A DNA stretch of 64,000 nucleotides from Christensenellaceae bacterium (GTDB lineage: Bacteria > Bacillota > Clostridia > Christensenellales > Borkfalkiaceae), in assembly GCA_045534605.1 (NCBI GenBank), contig JAZSKA010000018.1:1175-65174 (forward strand), given 5' to 3'. The notes under the pieces were generated by a model. That model was not told the DNA's origin, did no database searches, and saw nothing but the letters and a program-made list of their open reading frames with translations. The position numbers were made by a program, and so were the translations under genes. Of the stretch, positions 5,220-54,005 are shown one piece after another (position 1 is the first letter of the stretch; each line of letters starts with the position of its first letter).

Positions 5220-5855
5220 TTATTTTTTAACACCGACTTTTTTGCAAAGCGATTCAACTTCACACCCATTACAATTTGGGTTTATCGCCTTACAAACTCT
5301 GCGACCGTGGTAGATTAGATAGTGATGCGATTTCGACCAAAGACTTTTTTCAATGACTTTACACAAGTCCTTTTCGACCGCGTCGGGATTTTTGCCTTTT
5401 GAAAGCCCTAATCTTTTTGCCACCCTAAAAACGTGCGTGTCAACGGCTATCGCATCGCCAGAGAACGCTACGCTGTAAACGACGTTTGCAGTTTTTCTTC
5501 CAACGCCGTCTAAGGTAAGCAAACTTTCAAAGTCGGACGGAACTTGTCCTGCAAACTTTTCGATTATATCTTTAGTTGCGCCGAGTATATGTTTTGCCTT
5601 GTTTTTATAAAGACCGCAACTTTTTATATAAACTTCAAGTTCTTCTTGCGAAAGTGTTACAAGTTTTTCGGGCGTGTTATAATTTTCAAAAAGAACGCTT
5701 GTAACCTTGTTCACTCGTTCATCCGTGCACTGGGCAGAAAGAATTACCGCGACCAAAAGTTCGTAAGGCGTAGAAAAATTTAGCATAGGCTTAGCGTCAG
5801 GATAGCACTTTGCAAGTTTTTCTACTATTTTTTTAGCGCGCTCTTTTTGATTCAT
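5220..5855 (-). CDS. nth: Endonuclease III
   Basis: HhH-GPD motif LTLDGVGRKTANVV and a C-terminal 4Fe-4S cysteine cluster CKAINPNCNGCEVESLC. Confidence 0.93.
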   Translation of the reverse strand: MNQKERAKKIVEKLAKCYPDAKPMLNFSTPYELLVAVILSAQCTDERVNKVTSVLFENYNTPEKLVTLSQEELEVYIKSCGLYKNKAKHILGATKDIIEKFAGQVPSDFESLLTLDGVGRKTANVVYSVAFSGDAIAVDTHVFRVAKRLGLSKGKNPDAVEKDLCKVIEKSLWSKSHHYLIYHGRRVCKAINPNCNGCEVESLCKKVGVKK

Positions 5856-18895: not shown

Positions 18896-20212
18896 TTAAA
18901 ATTTTATCGAATAAATTACATACCCTGCCGAAAATATAACTTCACCCGAAAAGAATCTTTCATTTAGATCATCATAATGTTTTTCGCAAAACTCACAAAC
19001 TTCTTTAGCTATTTGTGATTTTGGATTTTCACGAAGCATGCGCGAGAAATCATTAGGAATAAAACTAAACCACGACTCAAAAAGCGCTATTTTATCTTTT
19101 CTTGACATATTTGAAGTATTTATACCATAACGCTCAAGACAAATTTCTTTAGGCTCCATTTTTCTCACATAAGAGTAAACTTGTCTACCCGTATATCTAT
19201 ACCCGCTATAAATATTATGAATATAAAAAGATTGAAATTTAGAAAACAATCCGTCCTTATCCGGATAAACAAAGACTGCGCCATCGTCAACATCACGCAC
19301 AATCATTACAGCATTTTCATTTAAACAGTTTTGAATTGCCTGTAAAATTTTAAACGGCTTTTTAAAATCCATAATTGCCATGCTCAAATAAACGATATCA
19401 ACGCCGTCTACGCCAACTTTTTCAAGACAACTCATAAGTTGTTCTTCAAAATCTTGAGCCTCAAATTTCACTTGGAAAAAATCTATTTCACCATTTTCTG
19501 TATAATTATGTTTATCTGCATTACCTTGTTTTACAATATCTTCGCTATATGTAAGAGCGATAACTCTAGTTATTTGAGGAAATTTTAAGCGCGCATAAGA
19601 ACCTTTCGTGCTTAAAACGTTCACATCGAGACAAACAACGTCTTCTTTTCCTTCTAACAATTTTTCTACGATAGGTTTTTCATATTTAGCAAGAAGTGCA
19701 TCCTCTGTTCTCAACCTATGCTTTTCAGCCTCGTCCTCATCATAGTAATAACGAACATCATCATGTCGGTCGTTTAGATTGGACTTTCTTTCGTCAATTT
19801 TTACACTGCGAAGCATAGAAATAATTTTTTCGACCGTCGCATCAAAATATTCCCTGCTTGACGGAACCCCATTTAAAAGTGGGAGTACCTGTAATGATAC
19901 AGGTAATTTTTCAGGAAAAGAAAATCCCACCATCATAACTGGTATTATGTTCTTTTTTTGTTTTATTGCGTGCTCAATTTCAAGTCTTAGCCAATCGCTT
20001 TCAGATGCGCATCTATCTAACGAGTTTGGTGGCAAAACTAAAACGAAGTTCTCACTTTCGTCAATTGCTTCGTAAAGTTTTTCGTTAAAAGCACCCGATT
20101 GAAGTTCTTCAAGATCTAAAAAGACAGAAAGCCCCGCTTTATTAAAACACTCATATAGAAGTCGTGCCATCGGAAAACCGCCATCTCGTCTATAACTTAT
20201 AAAAATATCCAT
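18896..20212 (-). CDS. TIR-domain protein fused to a degenerate class-I methyltransferase-like domain
   Basis: The N-terminus DIFISYRRDGG...FVLVLPPNS...SDWLRLEIEHA is a bacterial TIR signature with the conserved Glu. The C-terminal half resembles a Rossmann MTase but has VVCLDVNVLSTKGS in place of a GxGxG loop. Confidence 0.75.
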   Translation of the reverse strand: MDIFISYRRDGGFPMARLLYECFNKAGLSVFLDLEELQSGAFNEKLYEAIDESENFVLVLPPNSLDRCASESDWLRLEIEHAIKQKKNIIPVMMVGFSFPEKLPVSLQVLPLLNGVPSSREYFDATVEKIISMLRSVKIDERKSNLNDRHDDVRYYYDEDEAEKHRLRTEDALLAKYEKPIVEKLLEGKEDVVCLDVNVLSTKGSYARLKFPQITRVIALTYSEDIVKQGNADKHNYTENGEIDFFQVKFEAQDFEEQLMSCLEKVGVDGVDIVYLSMAIMDFKKPFKILQAIQNCLNENAVMIVRDVDDGAVFVYPDKDGLFSKFQSFYIHNIYSGYRYTGRQVYSYVRKMEPKEICLERYGINTSNMSRKDKIALFESWFSFIPNDFSRMLRENPKSQIAKEVCEFCEKHYDDLNERFFSGEVIFSAGYVIYSIKF

Positions 20213-22402: not shown

Positions 22403-23821
22403 TTAAATATCAATTAAAAAGCCTTGTAATCTTTCTGGCTTAAAACTATACGGATTCAAGCGCAAAAAGTCGAATGCGTTGGTGGTTAAAAGTTCCGCCC
22501 CGCCTTCGTTTAGAAAACTTCTTGAAGCAATACTGCTGTTTAGATAAAAGACAATTCTTGACGGGATATTTGCCTTTATTACGCCGTTAATAAAAATTGA
22601 TTCGAACCGAGCGGTAGATATAATTAAATGTATTCCGCTTGCGCGCGATTTTTGCAAAAGCGTGCAGAGTTTTTTCTCGAAATCTTTTTTCATCATAACT
22701 TCAAGCGCAGAAAACTCGTCGATAGCATAGACAATGTATTTTAACGGTTTTTCACTATTAATCGCGTTATAGCCCGATATATTACGAACTTTACTTTCAT
22801 TAAACAGCGAATATCTTCTTTCCATTTCGTCAATCAAGTCACCTAAAACTTCCATCGTTTTTTCGGCTGAAGTGATAACGCCTTCACCTTCGAGATATTC
22901 AGATTTATCAAAAGACTTAAACCCACCGAATATACTCGAACAGTAAAACTTTACGATATTATGCGAGTATCTTAGCGAAATGCTTTTAAGTATTCCTTCC
23001 ATAAAACGCAAAAGTTCGCTTCCGATAACGCCACTTATAAGTAAGTGCGGTTCACTCGTTAAATCAGAATAGACGACGTCGCCGTCTACGTTTATTCCAA
23101 CGGGATAAACCAAATTTCCGCTTGGAGCAACTAAATTTTCAAGCGAATTCAAACTTGGCAAAGTCTTTTCGCCGTTTTCTACTTCAAAATTAATTATTCC
23201 CCTATCGAAAGTTACCCTTACGCTAAATACGTTTAAAGCAATTTTGACATCGCTAATAAGTTTTAAAAAACTTGTAGGTTTTCCGTCGCAAACGAACGAA
23301 TATTTCGTATAGCACCCCGTCTTTACTGGGGTTAAAATTTCAGTAACAGTCGTAACCTTTTCGATAACGTTTAAAATTTTAATTTGCTCACCAGTCAGTT
23401 TGCCTTTTGGTGGGAATATTTCGTTTATTCTATAAAATAAAGTTTCTAAATGCGTAAATACGTCGTCGCCAACCGCTTCAATCCATTGTGAAAGTTGCAA
23501 AAAATAATTAAGTTTTATAGGTAAATTAGGCGTAATTTTAAACGGAATAATAGTTTTTTCTGCGCTGAACGCTAAGCTCATCTCTGCCCTTACGTGCACA
23601 GATTTATCGGCGTTTTCAGAAAAAATCAACACCACAAGCGCGCAATTTTTTATCGCGTCTTCAAGTTCGTCAGGATAACTTTCACCACCTAAAACGTCGC
23701 GCGACGAAATAAAGCAGTCGTAACCGCGTTTTTCCAAAAATTCGACGACAGTTTCAGCAGTTGACAAATCTTTTGATGAAAATGATATAAATATATCTTT
23801 GTTTGCGTTTATTTTATCCAT
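22403..23821 (-). CDS. TIR-domain protein fused to an FtsK/SpoIIIE-like motor domain with degenerate Walker A
   Basis: The N-terminus is DIFISFSSKD...LVVLIFSENADKSVHVRAEMSLA. The C-terminal region parallels the FtsK core: PHLLISGVIGSELLRF (in place of GxxGSGKS), Walker B YIVYAIDEFSAL, RASGIHLIISTARFE and IPSRIVFYLNSSIASRSFL. Confidence 0.75.
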   Translation of the reverse strand: MDKINANKDIFISFSSKDLSTAETVVEFLEKRGYDCFISSRDVLGGESYPDELEDAIKNCALVVLIFSENADKSVHVRAEMSLAFSAEKTIIPFKITPNLPIKLNYFLQLSQWIEAVGDDVFTHLETLFYRINEIFPPKGKLTGEQIKILNVIEKVTTVTEILTPVKTGCYTKYSFVCDGKPTSFLKLISDVKIALNVFSVRVTFDRGIINFEVENGEKTLPSLNSLENLVAPSGNLVYPVGINVDGDVVYSDLTSEPHLLISGVIGSELLRFMEGILKSISLRYSHNIVKFYCSSIFGGFKSFDKSEYLEGEGVITSAEKTMEVLGDLIDEMERRYSLFNESKVRNISGYNAINSEKPLKYIVYAIDEFSALEVMMKKDFEKKLCTLLQKSRASGIHLIISTARFESIFINGVIKANIPSRIVFYLNSSIASRSFLNEGGAELLTTNAFDFLRLNPYSFKPERLQGFLIDI

Positions 23822-26544: not shown

Positions 26545-27594
26545 ATGAGTTCGATAGTTTTAACTGGCGGTGGAACGGCTGGCCACGCAATACCAAACCT
26601 TGCAATTTTACCTTATATAAACGATAGTTTCGACAATATTTGCTATATTGGTCGCGAAATTGGAATTGAACGCAATTTATTAGAAAAATACACCGATTAC
26701 TTTTCAATTCCGACAATCAAGTTTAAGCGAAAAATCTGCGCTGATAATTTATTAATTCCTTTTAAACTTTATAAAGCGGTAAAAAAGAGTAAAGAAATTT
26801 TGAAAAAAATAAAACCTAGCGTTATATTTTCAAAAGGCGGATACGTTTCGCTTCCCGTGTGTATAGCAGGAAAACAATTAAAAATTCCAGTTATTTGTCA
26901 CGAGTCTGACTTAACGCTTGGTCTAGCAAATAAATTAACCGCAAAATTTTCAGATAAAGTGTTAACGTCTTATTTTGAAACGGCGCAAAATTTACAAAAC
27001 GGTATATACACGGGCGCACCAATTCGCGAAGGTCTTTTTTACGCAGACAAAAATTTAGCGTTAAGAAAATTTGGATTTAGCGGTCGAAAAAAAGTAATTT
27101 TAATATTCGGCGGTTCAATCGGAAGTCGGTCAATTAACGATTTAACGCGAAAAGTTTTAGACAGACTTTTAGAAAAATATGCAGTCCTTCACATATGTGG
27201 AAATGGTAATAAGTTCACTTATAACACGGAAAACGAGTATTTTCAGGCAGAATTTATCGACGATATGGCAAGTTGTTATCGCGCATGCGACGTTGCCGTT
27301 TCGCGCGGTGGGGCTAACGCACTTTTCGAACTTATGTCGCTTAAAATTCCGTCGCTTATTATACCCTTAGCAAAATCTTCTAGAAACGACCAAGTTGAAA
27401 ACGCCGAATATTTTAAAAAGCGCGGTATGTGTAACGTTGCGTTCGAAAAAAACTTAAACGCAAGTTTTTATTTTCAAGAAATTGAAAAACTTGTAAAAAA
27501 TCAAGATAAAATTAAAACTCGCATTATCGACAATAAAATTCCAATCGGAAATGAAAAAATTTCTGAGATTTTACTCTCTTATGCAAAAAAATGA
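26545..27594 (+). CDS. murG: Undecaprenyldiphospho-muramoylpentapeptide beta-N-acetylglucosaminyltransferase
   Basis: LTGGGTAGHAIPNLA and a C-terminal GT28 domain. The TGA stop lies inside the first linker of repeat element A1. Confidence 0.9.
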   Translation: MSSIVLTGGGTAGHAIPNLAILPYINDSFDNICYIGREIGIERNLLEKYTDYFSIPTIKFKRKICADNLLIPFKLYKAVKKSKEILKKIKPSVIFSKGGYVSLPVCIAGKQLKIPVICHESDLTLGLANKLTAKFSDKVLTSYFETAQNLQNGIYTGAPIREGLFYADKNLALRKFGFSGRKKVILIFGGSIGSRSINDLTRKVLDRLLEKYAVLHICGNGNKFTYNTENEYFQAEFIDDMASCYRACDVAVSRGGANALFELMSLKIPSLIIPLAKSSRNDQVENAEYFKKRGMCNVAFEKNLNASFYFQEIEKLVKNQDKIKTRIIDNKIPIGNEKISEILLSYAKK

Positions 27595-27854
27595 TTTGCA
27601 ACCTTTGGTTGCATGATTTGCTAACAATGTTAGCGTGATTTGCAATCCTTGATTGCATGATTTGAAAAAACAAGTTTTTTCATTGTGGTCGCGAACGCTA
27701 CGCGTTCCGTTATTAAATATGTTATGTTGGCAATTTTTTTAAAAAATCTGCTCGACTTCAATGCAAATCATTTGATTTGCAAATCATGAAAGTTCACTTT
27801 CAAATCATGAGCGACGACAGTTGCTCAAATCATGAAGGCTTGCCTTCAAATCAT
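27591..27854 (+). repeat. Hairpin-array element, family A, copy 1
   Basis: The left arm is 4 x [ATGATTT or GTGATTT + G..C-closed hairpin] at 22-bp period (27591, 27613, 27635, 27657). The unique core is 27682-27762. The right arm is the palindrome gcaaatca/tgatttgc followed by 3 x [hairpin + AAATCAT], ending at 27854. Confidence 0.9.
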
Positions 27855-27878
27855 CTAAAAATATTTTTTAGAAAATAT

Positions 27879-27908
27879 TTGACACACATCTGTCATATTT
27901 GATATTAT
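27879..27908 (+). promoter_or_regulatory. Promoter of the WYL regulator gene
   Basis: TTGACA-18 nt-TATTAT, preceded by TGA (extended -10). Confidence 0.45.
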
Positions 27909-27940
27909 ATAATTGGAAAAACTTAGTTTAGGAGATAATT

Positions 27941-28870
27941 ATGAAATATCAAATACTTATTGAAATTTTATTCTTGCTACTGTCAAGAAAGTCCGTTTCG
28001 GCAAAATATATTGCAGAGCGTTTCGACATTTCTCTACGAACTGCGTATAGATATTTACAAGAAATTGAACTTTGCAATATCCCCGTTATCGCAGAACGCG
28101 GTGCAAGCGGTGGTTTTTCTATTGCAGATACGTTTAAACTACCTGCAAGTTTCCTAACCGAAAGCGAATTTTTGAAATTATCATCTGTAATTAACGCAGT
28201 TGGCGAACAGATTGGTGATGCTAGCGAACTTGAACATATAAAAAACAAGTTATATTGCGCATCAAAAACCGAAAAAGAAAGCAATTTATCTTCATCTCAA
28301 CTTATAATTGACGGTAGCGACTGGTCGGTTGGTAGCAGTTATAAAAACAAATTAAGCGTAATAACACGCGCAATTGACAAGCGGGAAATACTTGAAATTT
28401 CATACCACGACAGAGAAGGCGAAGTTTCGACGCGTATTATCGAACCGCACGCGCTTGCCCTAAAACAAGGTTTATGGTATGCGTATGCATACTGCAGACT
28501 TCGCGAAGATTTTAGACTTTTTAAGATTGGTAGAATTGAGTATGCTAAAGTTTGCGGTAAGTTCGAAATGCGCGAATTTGATGCAAATAATCTTCCTTTT
28601 AACGAGTGGTATAACTCAATAAAGCGCGTTGAGTTTGAATTTGAAGTTGAAAAGTCTGTAAAAAGTGAAGTTGAAGAATGGCTTGGAATTGAAAACGTAC
28701 ATGAGTTAAAATCAGGTAAAATTATTGCAAGCGCGCGACTTCCTTACGATAAAGGACTAGTTTATCAGATTATGAGATTTGGTTCTAAAATTAAAGTGGT
28801 TAAACCTGACTACGTTAAGAAAGAAATTTTAAATTCTGCAAAAGAATTAATAAAATTATACCAAAAATAA
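27941..28870 (+). CDS. HTH-WYL domain transcriptional regulator (YafY family)
   Basis: N-terminal wHTH SAKYIAERFDISLRTAYRYLQEI. WYL region ISYHDREGEVSTRIIEPHALALKQGLWYAYAYCRLREDFRLFKIGRI. Confidence 0.85.
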   Translation: MKYQILIEILFLLLSRKSVSAKYIAERFDISLRTAYRYLQEIELCNIPVIAERGASGGFSIADTFKLPASFLTESEFLKLSSVINAVGEQIGDASELEHIKNKLYCASKTEKESNLSSSQLIIDGSDWSVGSSYKNKLSVITRAIDKREILEISYHDREGEVSTRIIEPHALALKQGLWYAYAYCRLREDFRLFKIGRIEYAKVCGKFEMREFDANNLPFNEWYNSIKRVEFEFEVEKSVKSEVEEWLGIENVHELKSGKIIASARLPYDKGLVYQIMRFGSKIKVVKPDYVKKEILNSAKELIKLYQK

Positions 28871-42095: not shown

Positions 42096-42307
42096 AAATT
42101 TGCAAGCAAATTTGTTATATTCGTCTAACAACGAGTGATATTGCCTAGCGCAGTGATATTTGCCTTACGGCAAATTATAATTTATTTAATATAACTTTGG
42201 CATAGCCAAAATATAACTGCTTGCGCAGTTGGCGTTCGCTACACTCAGTTAAACTGTTTGCTAGCGCAAACAATATAACTTTTAGCCACAAGGCTAAAAA
42301 TATAACT
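42096..42307 (+). repeat. Hairpin-array element, family B, copy 1
   Basis: The left arm has hairpins separated by GTTATATT/GTGATATT (42114, 42135, 42153). The central perfect palindrome is aaattataattt (42172-42183). The right arm has hairpins separated by AATATAAC (42188, 42210, 42272, 42299). Confidence 0.85.
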
Positions 42308-47403: not shown

Positions 47404-47588
47404 TGTGCCACACTACAACTATATTTGCCTGACGGCAAGTTATATTGCTTTCGCAGTTATATTTTTTATAAAAAGTGTTATTTCCCTTTCGGGAAGTTGG
47501 CAAATATAATATAACTTTAACTTTGTTAAAATATAACTTTTAGATTTACTCTAAAAATATAACTGTTTGCTATGCAAACAATATCACT
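47401..47588 (+). repeat. Hairpin-array element, family B, copy 2
   Basis: It starts at the yfbR-like stop codon. The left arm has linkers CTATATT/GTTATATT/GTTATATT/GTGTTATTT. The right arm has AATATAAC x3 plus AATATCAC. Some hairpins are shared with B1 (tgcctgacggca, tgtttgctatgcaaaca). Confidence 0.85.
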
Positions 47589-52881: not shown

Positions 52882-53163
52882 ATGATTTGAAGATTTTATC
52901 TTCATGATTTGAGCGACTGTCGTCGCTCGTGATTTGAAAGCCTTGCTTTCATGATTTGCAATTTGAAAACAAATTGCATTATGGTCGGGCAGATTTTTCT
53001 TTGAAAAATTGCCAACTTAACATTTTATATGTTATTCACGGAACGCAAAAGCGTTCGCGACCACAATGAAAAAACTTGTTTTTTCAAATCATGCAACTAA
53101 AAGTTGCAAATCATGCTAACTGTCAAGTTAGCAAATCATGCAAGCGCAAAGCTTGCAAATCAT
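52882..53163 (-). repeat. Hairpin-array element, family A, copy 2 (inverted relative to A1)
   Basis: The architecture matches A1. There are 4 x [ATGATTT/GTGATTT + hairpin] at 52882-52977, a homologous core containing gaacgc-aaaa-gcgttc, and 4 x [hairpin + AAATCAT] at 53068-53163. The last base overlaps the TGA stop of the spoIVFB-like gene. Confidence 0.9.
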
Positions 53164-54005
53164 CATCTTTTTATTTCATTTTTTAGCGTAGAGTATAAAT
53201 TTGCAGACGATAAAAGTTTTTGAGTTTTTACAATATCTAGCCGAGTTTTAATTTTGCCGTTATCGTCAATAACTACTATTTCGCAATCTTTCGAGCCAAC
53301 CACTCTATAAACGTCTAAAATTTTTGAATTCTCGTTTATTGCCACCGTTTCCACCCTTACCCCCGTATCAAACCGTTTTAAAGAAAAGTCGTTGTAAATG
53401 CGGATATAACTGTTTGTATTTGACTTTGTAAGCACGCCGAAAATCATAAACAGAGAGAAAAATAAAATACTTAAGTTAAATGCGGTAAAACACGAATAAA
53501 CGAACAGCCCAAACAAGCAAATCCCTAAGAATAAGCCGATTATCCGACAAATTTTTAAAGCAGTCGACCTTTTCAAATACAAAGATAGCGTAGCAAGCAG
53601 CACCCTTCCCCCGTCAAGCGGATAGCAAGGTAAAAGGTTGATAAAAGCAATCGCTAGATTAGTTGAAACGATAACGTCGGTATAGGCGTATATATCTGGT
53701 ATAAGCCACCAAAGCGCGGTAAAAAATATAACGATAAGTAAGTTTGTGACTGGACCTGCGAGTGCTATAAAAATTTCGTCTTTATACCTAAGACTTACCA
53801 TATCCCCGCTTATTACCGCGCCGTAAGGCATAAGAAGAATTTTGTCGAGTTTATAGCCGTAACGCTCGGAAACCAAAAAGTGTCCGAACTCGTGAAGAAG
53901 TGCGGATATGAACATTATTAAAAAAGAAAATACTTTGCCGATTAAAGCAAAGTATATTCCAAAGAGAAAGAATAACGGATGGATAATCGGTTTTAGCTTT
54001 GCCAT
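53163..54005 (-). CDS. spoIVFB: M50 site-2 protease, SpoIVFB-like
   Basis: LLHEFGHFLV, NLLPCYPLDGGR and a C-terminal CBS-like region. Preceded by a SpoIVFA-like gene. Confidence 0.75.
   Translation of the reverse strand: MAKLKPIIHPLFFLFGIYFALIGKVFSFLIMFISALLHEFGHFLVSERYGYKLDKILLMPYGAVISGDMVSLRYKDEIFIALAGPVTNLLIVIFFTALWWLIPDIYAYTDVIVSTNLAIAFINLLPCYPLDGGRVLLATLSLYLKRSTALKICRIIGLFLGICLFGLFVYSCFTAFNLSILFFSLFMIFGVLTKSNTNSYIRIYNDFSLKRFDTGVRVETVAINENSKILDVYRVVGSKDCEIVVIDDNGKIKTRLDIVKTQKLLSSANLYSTLKNEIKR

Follow-up and report, generated by a model that had tools for sequence, protein, structure and literature searches.

Between murG and a WYL regulator gene, on a 64,000-nucleotide stretch of Christensenellaceae DNA (the 'window', meaning the whole stretch analysed), lies an array of short hairpins separated by constant heptamer 'linkers', here called family A; very probably a gene-less member of a family of heptamer-hairpin elements associated with the protein family PF05635 (Table 1). 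Reading from murG towards the regulator gene, we see in arm P the linkers ATGATTT, ATGATTT, GTGATTT and ATGATTT (at 27591, 27613, 27635 and 27657, a period of exactly 22 nt), each followed by a perfect hairpin: gcaacc-ttt-ggttgc, gctaac-aat-gttagc, gcaatc-ctt-gattgc and gaaaaaac-aa-gttttttc. The core then holds GTCGCG and the hairpin GAACGC-tac-GCGTTC (27693–27707), followed by an imperfect hairpin (GCAATTTTTTT/AAAAAATCTGC) and CGAC. In arm Q, an inner hairpin (27763–27780) that includes an AAATCAT of its own gives way to AAATCAT linkers at 27781, 27802, 27827 and 27848; between these stand gaaagt-tc-actttc, gagcgac-gaca-gttgctc and gaaggc-tt-gccttc, the second of which contains the single G-T pair found among the stems of this arm. 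The inner junction of this type of element reads, from both sides, CATTG-NN-GTCG(C/A)G and then a hairpin. Every hairpin of the element is closed by G..C and the stop codon of murG (TGA, 27592–27594) sits within linker 1; TGA is in fact present in all three frames over linkers 1–3. The original prediction had described this strict grammar, and its letters, positions, 22-bp period, G..C closure and embedded stop codon are all as it gave them.

A second family-A copy, absent from the entry in which the first was reported, lies elsewhere in the window, with its arm P beginning at the stop codon of the upstream Peptidase_M50 gene. When the two copies are compared, the linkers and core are nearly invariant, the differences falling mostly in loops and loop-proximal stem positions. 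Both occupy spacers between protein genes, with no ribosomal RNA (rRNA) found in the window and no transposase among the 40 open reading frames (ORFs) of the window that were scanned, the neighbours of both copies included. Two further arrays, ‘family B’, follow the same heptamer-hairpin grammar with other linkers; these lie at ~42112–42300 and 47416–47585 (between a DUF512 radical-SAM gene and queH, and downstream of a YfbR-like gene), and have left arms of GTGATAT/GTTATAT plus hairpin and right arms of hairpin plus ATATAAC.

Table 1. Coordinates and strands of the two family-A copies, their parts and their neighbours in the window.
Feature	Position	Strand	Description
Hairpin-array element (family A)	27591–27854 (264 bp)		Spacer between murG and WYL regulator gene; read from sequence
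Arm P (sense)	27591–27685	+	Four repeats of RTGATTT plus G..C-closed hairpin; terminal CATTG at 27681–27685
Core	27686–27758 (~80 nt)	+	Between arms P and Q
Arm Q (antisense on + strand)	27759–27854	+	CAATG (27759–27763), inner hairpin, four linkers, three hairpins
murG	26545–27594	+	Pfam-confirmed MurG; frame closes at the TGA of linker 1
Promoter-like site	27879–27908	+	TTGACA-18-TATTAT, 11/12 matches; serves WYL gene; outside element
WYL regulator gene	27941–28870	+	HTH_11-WYL-WCX; downstream neighbour of element
Second family-A copy	52882–53163	-	86% identical; inverted relative to 27591–27854
Second copy, arm Q	52882–52982	-	Part of second copy
Second copy, core	~52983–53062	-	Part of second copy
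Second copy, arm P	53063–53163	-	Part of second copy
Peptidase_M50 gene	53163–54005	-	Upstream of second copy

In the window we count 22 occurrences of the octamer RTGATTTG where 4.4 are expected; none of 100 shuffles reached that number, and 17 of the 22 fall into two clusters, namely the two copies. Their folding energies lie far below those of shuffled sequences (z = -6.2 for the copy behind murG, z = -8.3 for the second). In an alignment of the two window copies with two more from a metagenome-assembled Christensenellaceae genome (locus L077), RNAalifold finds both partners altered in eight hairpin pairs and no pair disrupted; and amongst the wider set of true relatives described below, 138 of 166 distinct inter-linker segments form complete hairpins (12.3 in shuffles, maximum 21), 151 of the 166 have the G..C closure, and the stems amount to 758 Watson–Crick pairs and 17 others. 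Hairpin potential is thus kept by compensated change, as the original prediction supposed. Since MAFFT, applied to family-A arms, aligns the linkers but not the length-variable hairpins, we relied on these direct hairpin statistics in place of a covariance model. The minimum-free-energy fold additionally pairs left with right linkers, as in a ladder; we rejected this as a required feature, because the linker pairs never vary, because single arms exist, and because at L077:5420–5840 a GTGAAAT arm is joined to an AAATCAT arm, whose linkers cannot pair.

A dispersed family and its partner gene

The original prediction proposed a genome scan for linker-hairpin arrays, and one such scan (one genome per species, three linkers 12–18 nt apart) does recover a family. 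It returned 113 loci, about 37 of which are true relatives by the test that at least half of their inter-linker segments be full hairpins; all come from gut or rumen Clostridia assembled from metagenomes, under labels such as 'Clostridia bacterium RGIG...', Acutalibacteraceae, Christensenellaceae and Eubacteriales. The remaining ~76 (from H. pylori, Nostoc, Acinetobacter, Bacteroidota and others) contain 0% hairpins and were set aside as unrelated tandem repeats, with the exception of three Bacteroidota loci, to which we return below. An arm consists of a linker plus hairpin, usually repeated four times, and then CATTR; the number of linkers per arm peaks at four both in the genome loci (83 of 113 arms) and in metagenome loci (147 of 208). 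Linkers have the general form RYGAWWT (ATGATTT, ATGAATT, GTGATAT/GCGATAT, TCGATAT, GTGAAAT) and a spacing of 14–25 nt among relatives. Arms can be convergent, as in the window, or divergent, single or tandem, and non-complementary linkers are also combined; the mirrored arms of the original prediction are therefore true of the window copy and not defining for the family.

Elements of the family nearly fill the intergenic spacers in which they sit (31 co-directional, 12 convergent and 5 divergent), with at least one gene 3' end beside 43 of 48, and in all four copies of the P/Q type it is arm P that follows the upstream gene. One compact subfamily (RGIG4012) has seven copies with unrelated flanks and asymmetric ends, two of them directly after a terminator. 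Neither these seven nor the four P/Q copies are flanked by a direct repeat that could represent a target-site duplication. Clustering of ORFs from 38 loci, as a search for a recurrent transposase, produced only ABC-type ATPases and syntenic housekeeping genes. Similar arrays were not found in plasmid, phage or viral collections, and a phage or plasmid origin was discarded, the 11 pattern matches on viral contigs being plain tandem repeats without hairpins.

This grammar is already represented in Rfam by the Gut-1 motif (RF01706), so the view of the original prediction that no nameable repeat class applies has to be given up, even though family A itself scores nothing. The Gut-1 model has the consensus CAaUGAAAU-hp-GUGAAAU-hp-GUGAAAU-hp-UGAAAU, where hp is a hairpin; it matches relatives at L005:7482–7560 (62.6 bits) and L077:5469–5564 (50.2 bits), and reaches 37.3 and 31.8 bits on family B, under its gathering score of 50 bits. 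Across the window there is no match to family A at the gathering score, and none at an expect value (E) of 10 or below in 27400–28000. In architecture, the window element shares the defining Gut-1 feature of three or more repeats of a constant heptamer linker and a hairpin of variable sequence. Gut-1 was described from human gut metagenomes as probably a non-coding RNA (Weinberg et al. 2010; PMC2864571), and the supplements of that paper make no mention of S23 or PF05635.

Several other repeats were seen beside the arms. A unit of ~70 nt (agacagaggc..cctcggtg..attgaggtaWtaaaa) adjoins single family-A arms at L085:3740–4300, where it is tandem and threefold, and at L016:1180–1460, where it is single, and also forms the core of divergent-arm elements at L002 and L027. 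Gut-1-like arrays (GTGATAT/GCGATAT) alternate with a 'gaggctatatcg...' unit at L054:975–1640 and L020:2005–2230, such arrays being three- to four-fold amplified in one species relative to syntenic relatives (L005, L020). A repeated sequence, cttcaccttgaggggaaggtg..gacggatgaggtgt, abuts arrays in two related genomes (L077:3120–3190 and 5420–5470; L040:1850–1888). A candidate 'CACTGAA array' at L077:1–260 (cctgaaGaaccagg CACTGAA...) turned out to be a tandem 21-nt coding repeat, outside the family.

Comparison of orthologous sites reveals gain, loss and exchange of arms. Identical-protein matches for WYL, MurG and dUTPase were not found, and relatives were reached through homologues. In one relative at the murG site (L114, MurG 95% identical) the same element is present and murG still ends at a TAA of its own, which stands 4 nt ahead of linker 1 (gcaTAAaaATGA, compared with gcaAAAaaATGA in the window); in the window TAA has become AAA and the frame continues to the TGA of the linker. 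The local copy is probably a passenger that fills the murG–WYL spacer and happens to provide the stop codon of murG. In a sister species (MurG 89%; RGIG2223 and several metagenomes) the left arm is absent from this spacer, which retains the right half of the core and the inner hairpin, followed by four ATATCGA linkers with different hairpins; an arm swap of the same kind distinguishes L040 from L077. At the site of the second copy, L244 (97% identical) has the element and L247 (72% identical) is empty, with a spacer of 66 nt and an M50 gene four codons longer. Two elements present in one Acutalibacteraceae species (L027) likewise correspond to empty sites in another (L088), and L134 and L143 differ with breakpoints exactly at the arm ends. 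The arm swaps, the position of these breakpoints and the lack of target-site duplications together suggest that the family spreads by recombination at its arms.

The protein partner was met at locus L021, where a 121-amino-acid ORF between divergent family-A arms belongs to PF05635 (TIGR02436, 'four helix bundle protein'), its closest solved structure, 2RLD, having five chains. PF05635 is the S23p or '23S rRNA intervening-sequence protein' family, a four-helix bundle. Three homologues (P0125, P0146 and P0205) are likewise solitary between housekeeping genes, with (hairpin-AAWTCAT) repeated three to four times upstream and, mostly, (RTGAWTT-hairpin) repeated two to four times downstream. The association holds when approached from the gene: amongst 80 metagenome loci found by PF05635 alignment alone, the repeat not being used, 79 of the clostridial genes are flanked by arms. 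A regular expression detects arms beside the gene in ~70 of the 80 (background, five arms in 108 kb of far flank), and of five loci that seemed 'armless', four have arms built on other linkers (ATTTCAT, ATTTCAAG, GAAGATTCATTG); linkers number 20 per kb over the 150 nt upstream of the genes and ~1 per kb in the far flanks. In 45 of 58 loci the distance from the end of the last upstream linker to the ATG is 15–19 nt, a gap that holds the ribosome-binding site. The co-varying protein gene for which the original prediction proposed to search exists, and is PF05635 rather than a transposase.

Gene-bearing units occur with divergent arms and also in the arrangement seen in the window, that is, sense arm x4, gene, CAATG, antisense arm x4 (L186, L193, L212, L227 and L242). 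At L193 the gene lies between two near-identical inner hairpins, which would offer an obvious deletion route to a gene-less core. Gut-1 model matches flank the gene on opposite strands at L227, L242 and L243 (35–47 bits, E 5e-7 to 6e-4), and the genome loci contain a PF05635 gene in only one of ~60 elements. The three Bacteroidota loci excepted above were pulled in originally by the heptamer pattern alone; their PF05635 genes (L066:690–1107, L026:3878–4591 and L087:1831–2513) are flanked by heptamer arrays that lack hairpins, comprising (ATGATTTG)x7, (GTGATTTR)x21 with inverted (AAATCACt)x4–5, and AAATCAT-rich repeats. The heptamer is therefore carried along with PF05635 across phyla. S23p forms a homopentameric ring in Xanthomonas (PMC4990558), and PF05635/cd16375 is homologous to Avd of the diversity-generating retroelements, a pentameric protein that binds nucleic acid (PMC10053308). 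The presence of PF05635 genes in cas loci is on record, though unexplained (PMC3936711), and in the literature searched we found no account of an association of PF05635, S23p or the 'four helix bundle protein' with repeats.

Similarity between PF05635 proteins is higher within a linker type than between types (68.7% and 64.6%; none of 2000 permutations reaches that), an observation we discarded as a sign of recognition, since co-inheritance alone predicts such a correlation. Directly after PF05635 genes of the P0205 subgroup we see a conserved 67-amino-acid ORF with no Pfam match (L154:1566–1769, L161:448–651 and relatives); it replaces the downstream arm, and at least two different neighbourhoods follow the pair (nicotinamide mononucleotide (NMN) transporter; TraX). 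Elsewhere (L134:1–113 with 1201–1572, and L136) two PF05635 genes lie 1.1 kb apart with an ABC-3 permease gene between them. Many of the PF05635 homologues are found on contigs of 0.5–1.5 kb, suggesting that arms break assemblies.

Apart from these arrays, the window holds two defence-like genes for TIR-domain proteins, both on the minus strand and both adjoining housekeeping genes: 18896–20212 (TIR_2 plus methyltransferase-like) and 22403–23821 (TIR plus FtsK/SpoIIIE-type ATPase), the latter conserved in relatives L114–L121.

Loop polarity and competing explanations

The loops of the hairpins are strongly polar. On the linker-sense strand, loops of 3–4 nt read T..C in 84 of 145 cases in the genome loci and 118 of 190 in the metagenome loci, with the reverse polarity in three and one (202 against 4 combined); on the strand reading hairpin-AAWTCAT the same loops are G..A. 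As the bias is alike whatever the position of the arm or the direction of the gene (75, 78, 67 and 74% for arms upstream and downstream of PF05635 genes, sense and antisense), loop polarity belongs to the arm and not to the transcript. On the linker-sense strand, moreover, A.C mismatches outnumber G.T (24 against 13). The original prediction had noted that the lone G-T pair of arm Q is a legal G-U only in the plus-strand transcript; that pair does not single out this transcript, for across the family the functional strand follows the polarity of each arm and not the direction of transcription. The commonest loops are C-GAA-G, C-GCA-G, C-GTA-G and C-GNNA-G, and literal GCGAAGC, GCGCAGC and GCGGAGC occur. 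DNA mini-hairpins of the types d(GCGNAGC) and d(GCGNNAGC) melt at 70–76 C, withstand exonuclease and have little affinity for single-strand-binding protein (SSB); the corresponding RNAs are far less stable (PMC13037366). The polarity of the family thus argues for DNA, and for the strand opposite to that annotated for Gut-1 in Rfam. A non-palindromic unit, GGAGCnnnGCGAG on the hairpin-AAWTCAT strand, is often present once per arm (L144:1092–1184, L175:1850–2050, L006:1914–1990); it could close as a GC-GNA-GC mini-hairpin with tandem G.A pairs, on that strand only.

How such elements might work is suggested by these features. The window copies, which resemble miniature inverted-repeat transposable elements (MITEs), would have derived from a gene-bearing unit through loss of the gene between similar inner hairpins; the linkers would be cis sites of the pentameric PF05635 protein; and the hairpins, folding out on single-stranded DNA (on the strand 5'-hairpin-AAATCAT-3'), would make four to five heptamers contiguous, reproducing the hairpin-less tandem arrays that stand beside PF05635 genes in Coxiella and Bacteroidota. 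Spread and reshuffling would proceed via recombination at the arms, with no classical transposase involved. We put this protein-binding, single-stranded mechanism forward tentatively, rating it well below the family assignment; membership and mechanism taken as one account come out, in our judgement, on the favourable side. A bolder form, in which arms and pentameric PF05635 protein constitute an unrecognised selfish element whose ends act as folded single-stranded DNA and whose gene-less satellite is the element in the window, strikes us as a doubtful, if attractive, possibility; to our knowledge the sole gene of such an element has no recombinase fold.

Saying this, a number of points weigh against our interpretation. 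The window itself has no PF05635 gene, and none was found with the P/Q hairpin sequences of the window copies, such that their descent from a gene-bearing unit is argued from architecture and not from sequence identity. We know of no catalytic activity for PF05635, nor of any demonstration that it binds the heptamer, and the agreement of four to five linkers with a pentamer is so far only a numerical coincidence. The 80 gene loci represent one clostridial PF05635 clade (56–85% identity to the query), and the association could run in reverse, arrays that already existed having been invaded by homing PF05635 genes. RNA, too, favours G..A loops in the form of GNRA tetraloops; the tight placing of the last linker before the ribosome-binding site would equally fit autoregulation at the RNA level; and the placement of arm P after the upstream gene hints, with n=4, at a link to transcription.

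The last two of these points belong to the strongest competitor, a Gut-1-like structured RNA or 3'-untranslated-region element transcribed with murG and serving as an exonuclease barrier, or as an AUGAUUU sponge or operator, possibly for PF05635 itself. Rfam treats the same grammar as an RNA gene on grounds of covariation, the fold is strong (z = -6 to -8), gene 3' ends adjoin most elements, both window copies begin at a stop codon, and a last linker beside the ribosome-binding site suits translational autoregulation. We nonetheless consider an RNA role unlikely: the G..A polarity follows the arm, leaving half of the arms with the U..C version on the transcribed strand; other subfamilies occur in both orientations relative to flanking genes; C-G-closed GNA triloops stabilise DNA specifically, their RNA counterparts being weak; scans found no promoter or terminator belonging to the element; and some orthologous sites lack arms or carry exchanged ones, which would not be expected of a conserved regulatory RNA. 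The array of weak bidirectional terminators suggested by the original prediction fares much worse, and we give it next to no credence. It would account for the gene-end position and for the fact that transcription entering the window copies from either side meets a hairpin and then AUGAUUU; yet the only U-run is three bases long, terminator scans find nothing within the arms in the direction of transcription, divergent-arm relatives present hairpin plus AAAUCAU to incoming transcripts, and some copies directly follow a genuine terminator.

At the DNA level, the arms might be hairpin repeats of the kind known as repetitive extragenic palindromes and bacterial interspersed mosaic elements (REP/BIME), moved in trans by an HUH tyrosine transposase (REP-associated tyrosine transposase, RAYT) encoded once, elsewhere in the genome. 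REP/BIME sequences, like the elements described here, are extragenic, numerous and beside gene ends, with mosaic clusters, alternating orientation, specific connectors, a short constant motif 5' of the hairpin and no target-site duplications, and hairpin-specific single-strand chemistry would suit the strand polarity seen here. We regard this origin as improbable, however, as the GTAG/GTGG tetranucleotide of such systems (0–2 nt 5' of the hairpin; PMC6006769) stands beside none of the hairpins, no Y1/HUH transposase turned up in the scan of 40 window ORFs, nor did one recur among the ORFs of the 38 loci, and the gene between the arms is, in 79 of 80 cases, PF05635. The original prediction was right to exclude REP/BIME in this strict sense, and also clustered regularly interspaced short palindromic repeats (CRISPR), in which direct repeats of 23–50 nt alternate with unique non-palindromic spacers, accompanied by a leader and cas genes: here the constant part measures 7 nt, the variable parts are palindromic and the arms inverted, and no cas gene is present among the ORFs scanned. 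Its third proposal, multi-site ends for a transposase, came closest of the three in viewing the element as non-autonomous, and goes astray in the gene, which is PF05635 and no transposase. As a classical MITE whose ends serve as multi-site targets of a Tn7/Mu/IS21-type DDE transposase, the element would explain its inverted TG...CA ends, its several sub-terminal repeats per end and the 22-bp period of its left arm. That period is lost in the family, where the range of linker spacing abolishes helical phasing; arms also occur single, divergent and tandem, target-site duplications were not seen, no locus examined has a DDE gene, and binding to double-stranded DNA would leave a palindromic, compensated spacer without a role, all of which leaves this explanation highly implausible.

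Comparison with known systems

Gut-1 has stood in Rfam as an orphan 'RNA gene' since 2010, and PF05635/S23p has been an orphan protein family since the 1990s, the latter with a solved structure, a homologue (Avd) that diversity-generating retroelements cannot do without, and a long-standing, unproven proposal that rRNA intervening sequences need S23p in order to move. In one clostridial clade the orphan motif and the orphan family are parts of one unit, with gene-less arms by the hundreds in the spacers of gut Clostridia, and Gut-1 and PF05635 become one testable system. Were the selfish-element proposal correct, it would explain at once the Gut-1 motif, the S23p-bearing 23S intervening sequences and the scattered 'four helix bundle protein' genes, both those between housekeeping genes and those inside cas loci. 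On a practical level, the arrays seem to break metagenome assemblies, can pass for CRISPR-like repeats and donate stop codons, as to murG here. Already known are the Gut-1 grammar and the S23p-bearing intervening sequences with their heptamers; new, in that we did not find them in the literature searched, are the ATGATTT family, the mosaic of modules, the connection between Gut-1-type arms and PF05635 genes, and a loop polarity of the DNA type.

With Gut-1 the window element shares an identical grammar, in that a constant heptamer (GUGAAAU in Gut-1) and a variable hairpin alternate three to four times, as well as a gut-metagenome habitat; at L077:5420–5840 Gut-1-type arms are joined directly to family-A arms. 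It differs in its linker, ATGATTT, which the Gut-1 model does not match, and the published description of Gut-1, as a small RNA standing by itself, says nothing of inverted arms, mobility or PF05635. The S23p-bearing 23S intervening sequences of Coxiella and Leptospira (PMC4990558) are likewise small, selfish-looking PF05635 units with inverted repeats, that of Coxiella having tandem heptamers (GACAGAT, x2–4) directly upstream of its S23p gene's start codon (PMC4990558), and the window element has the inverted bounding heptamer repeats of this type. Here, by contrast, the elements lie outside rRNA, their heptamers are interleaved with hairpins, excision by RNase III is not implied, and the window copies have an 80-nt core in place of the gene. 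Avd shares with the partner protein its fold and family, whereas neither reverse transcriptase nor template repeat nor variable repeat is found beside the PF05635 genes seen here. The DNA mini-hairpins of single-strand origins and of the phage N4 promoter (PMC13037366) have the same strand-specific C-GNA-G and C-GNNA-G loops, though there each functional hairpin stands singly, in the single-stranded DNA of a phage or plasmid, and is not one of four in a chromosomal array with heptamers.

The best functional analogy is that with REP/BIME, or REP doublets forming hairpins (REPIN), and their RAYT. In both cases hairpin repeats are extragenic, carry a constant 5' motif, form mosaic clusters and are placed at gene ends, and in both the partner gene is flanked by repeats and target-site duplications are lacking. 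The differences lie in the parts: an array of four mini-hairpins here, one long imperfect palindrome in REP; and a four-helix bundle as partner, without GTAG/GTGG, where REP has an HUH transposase.

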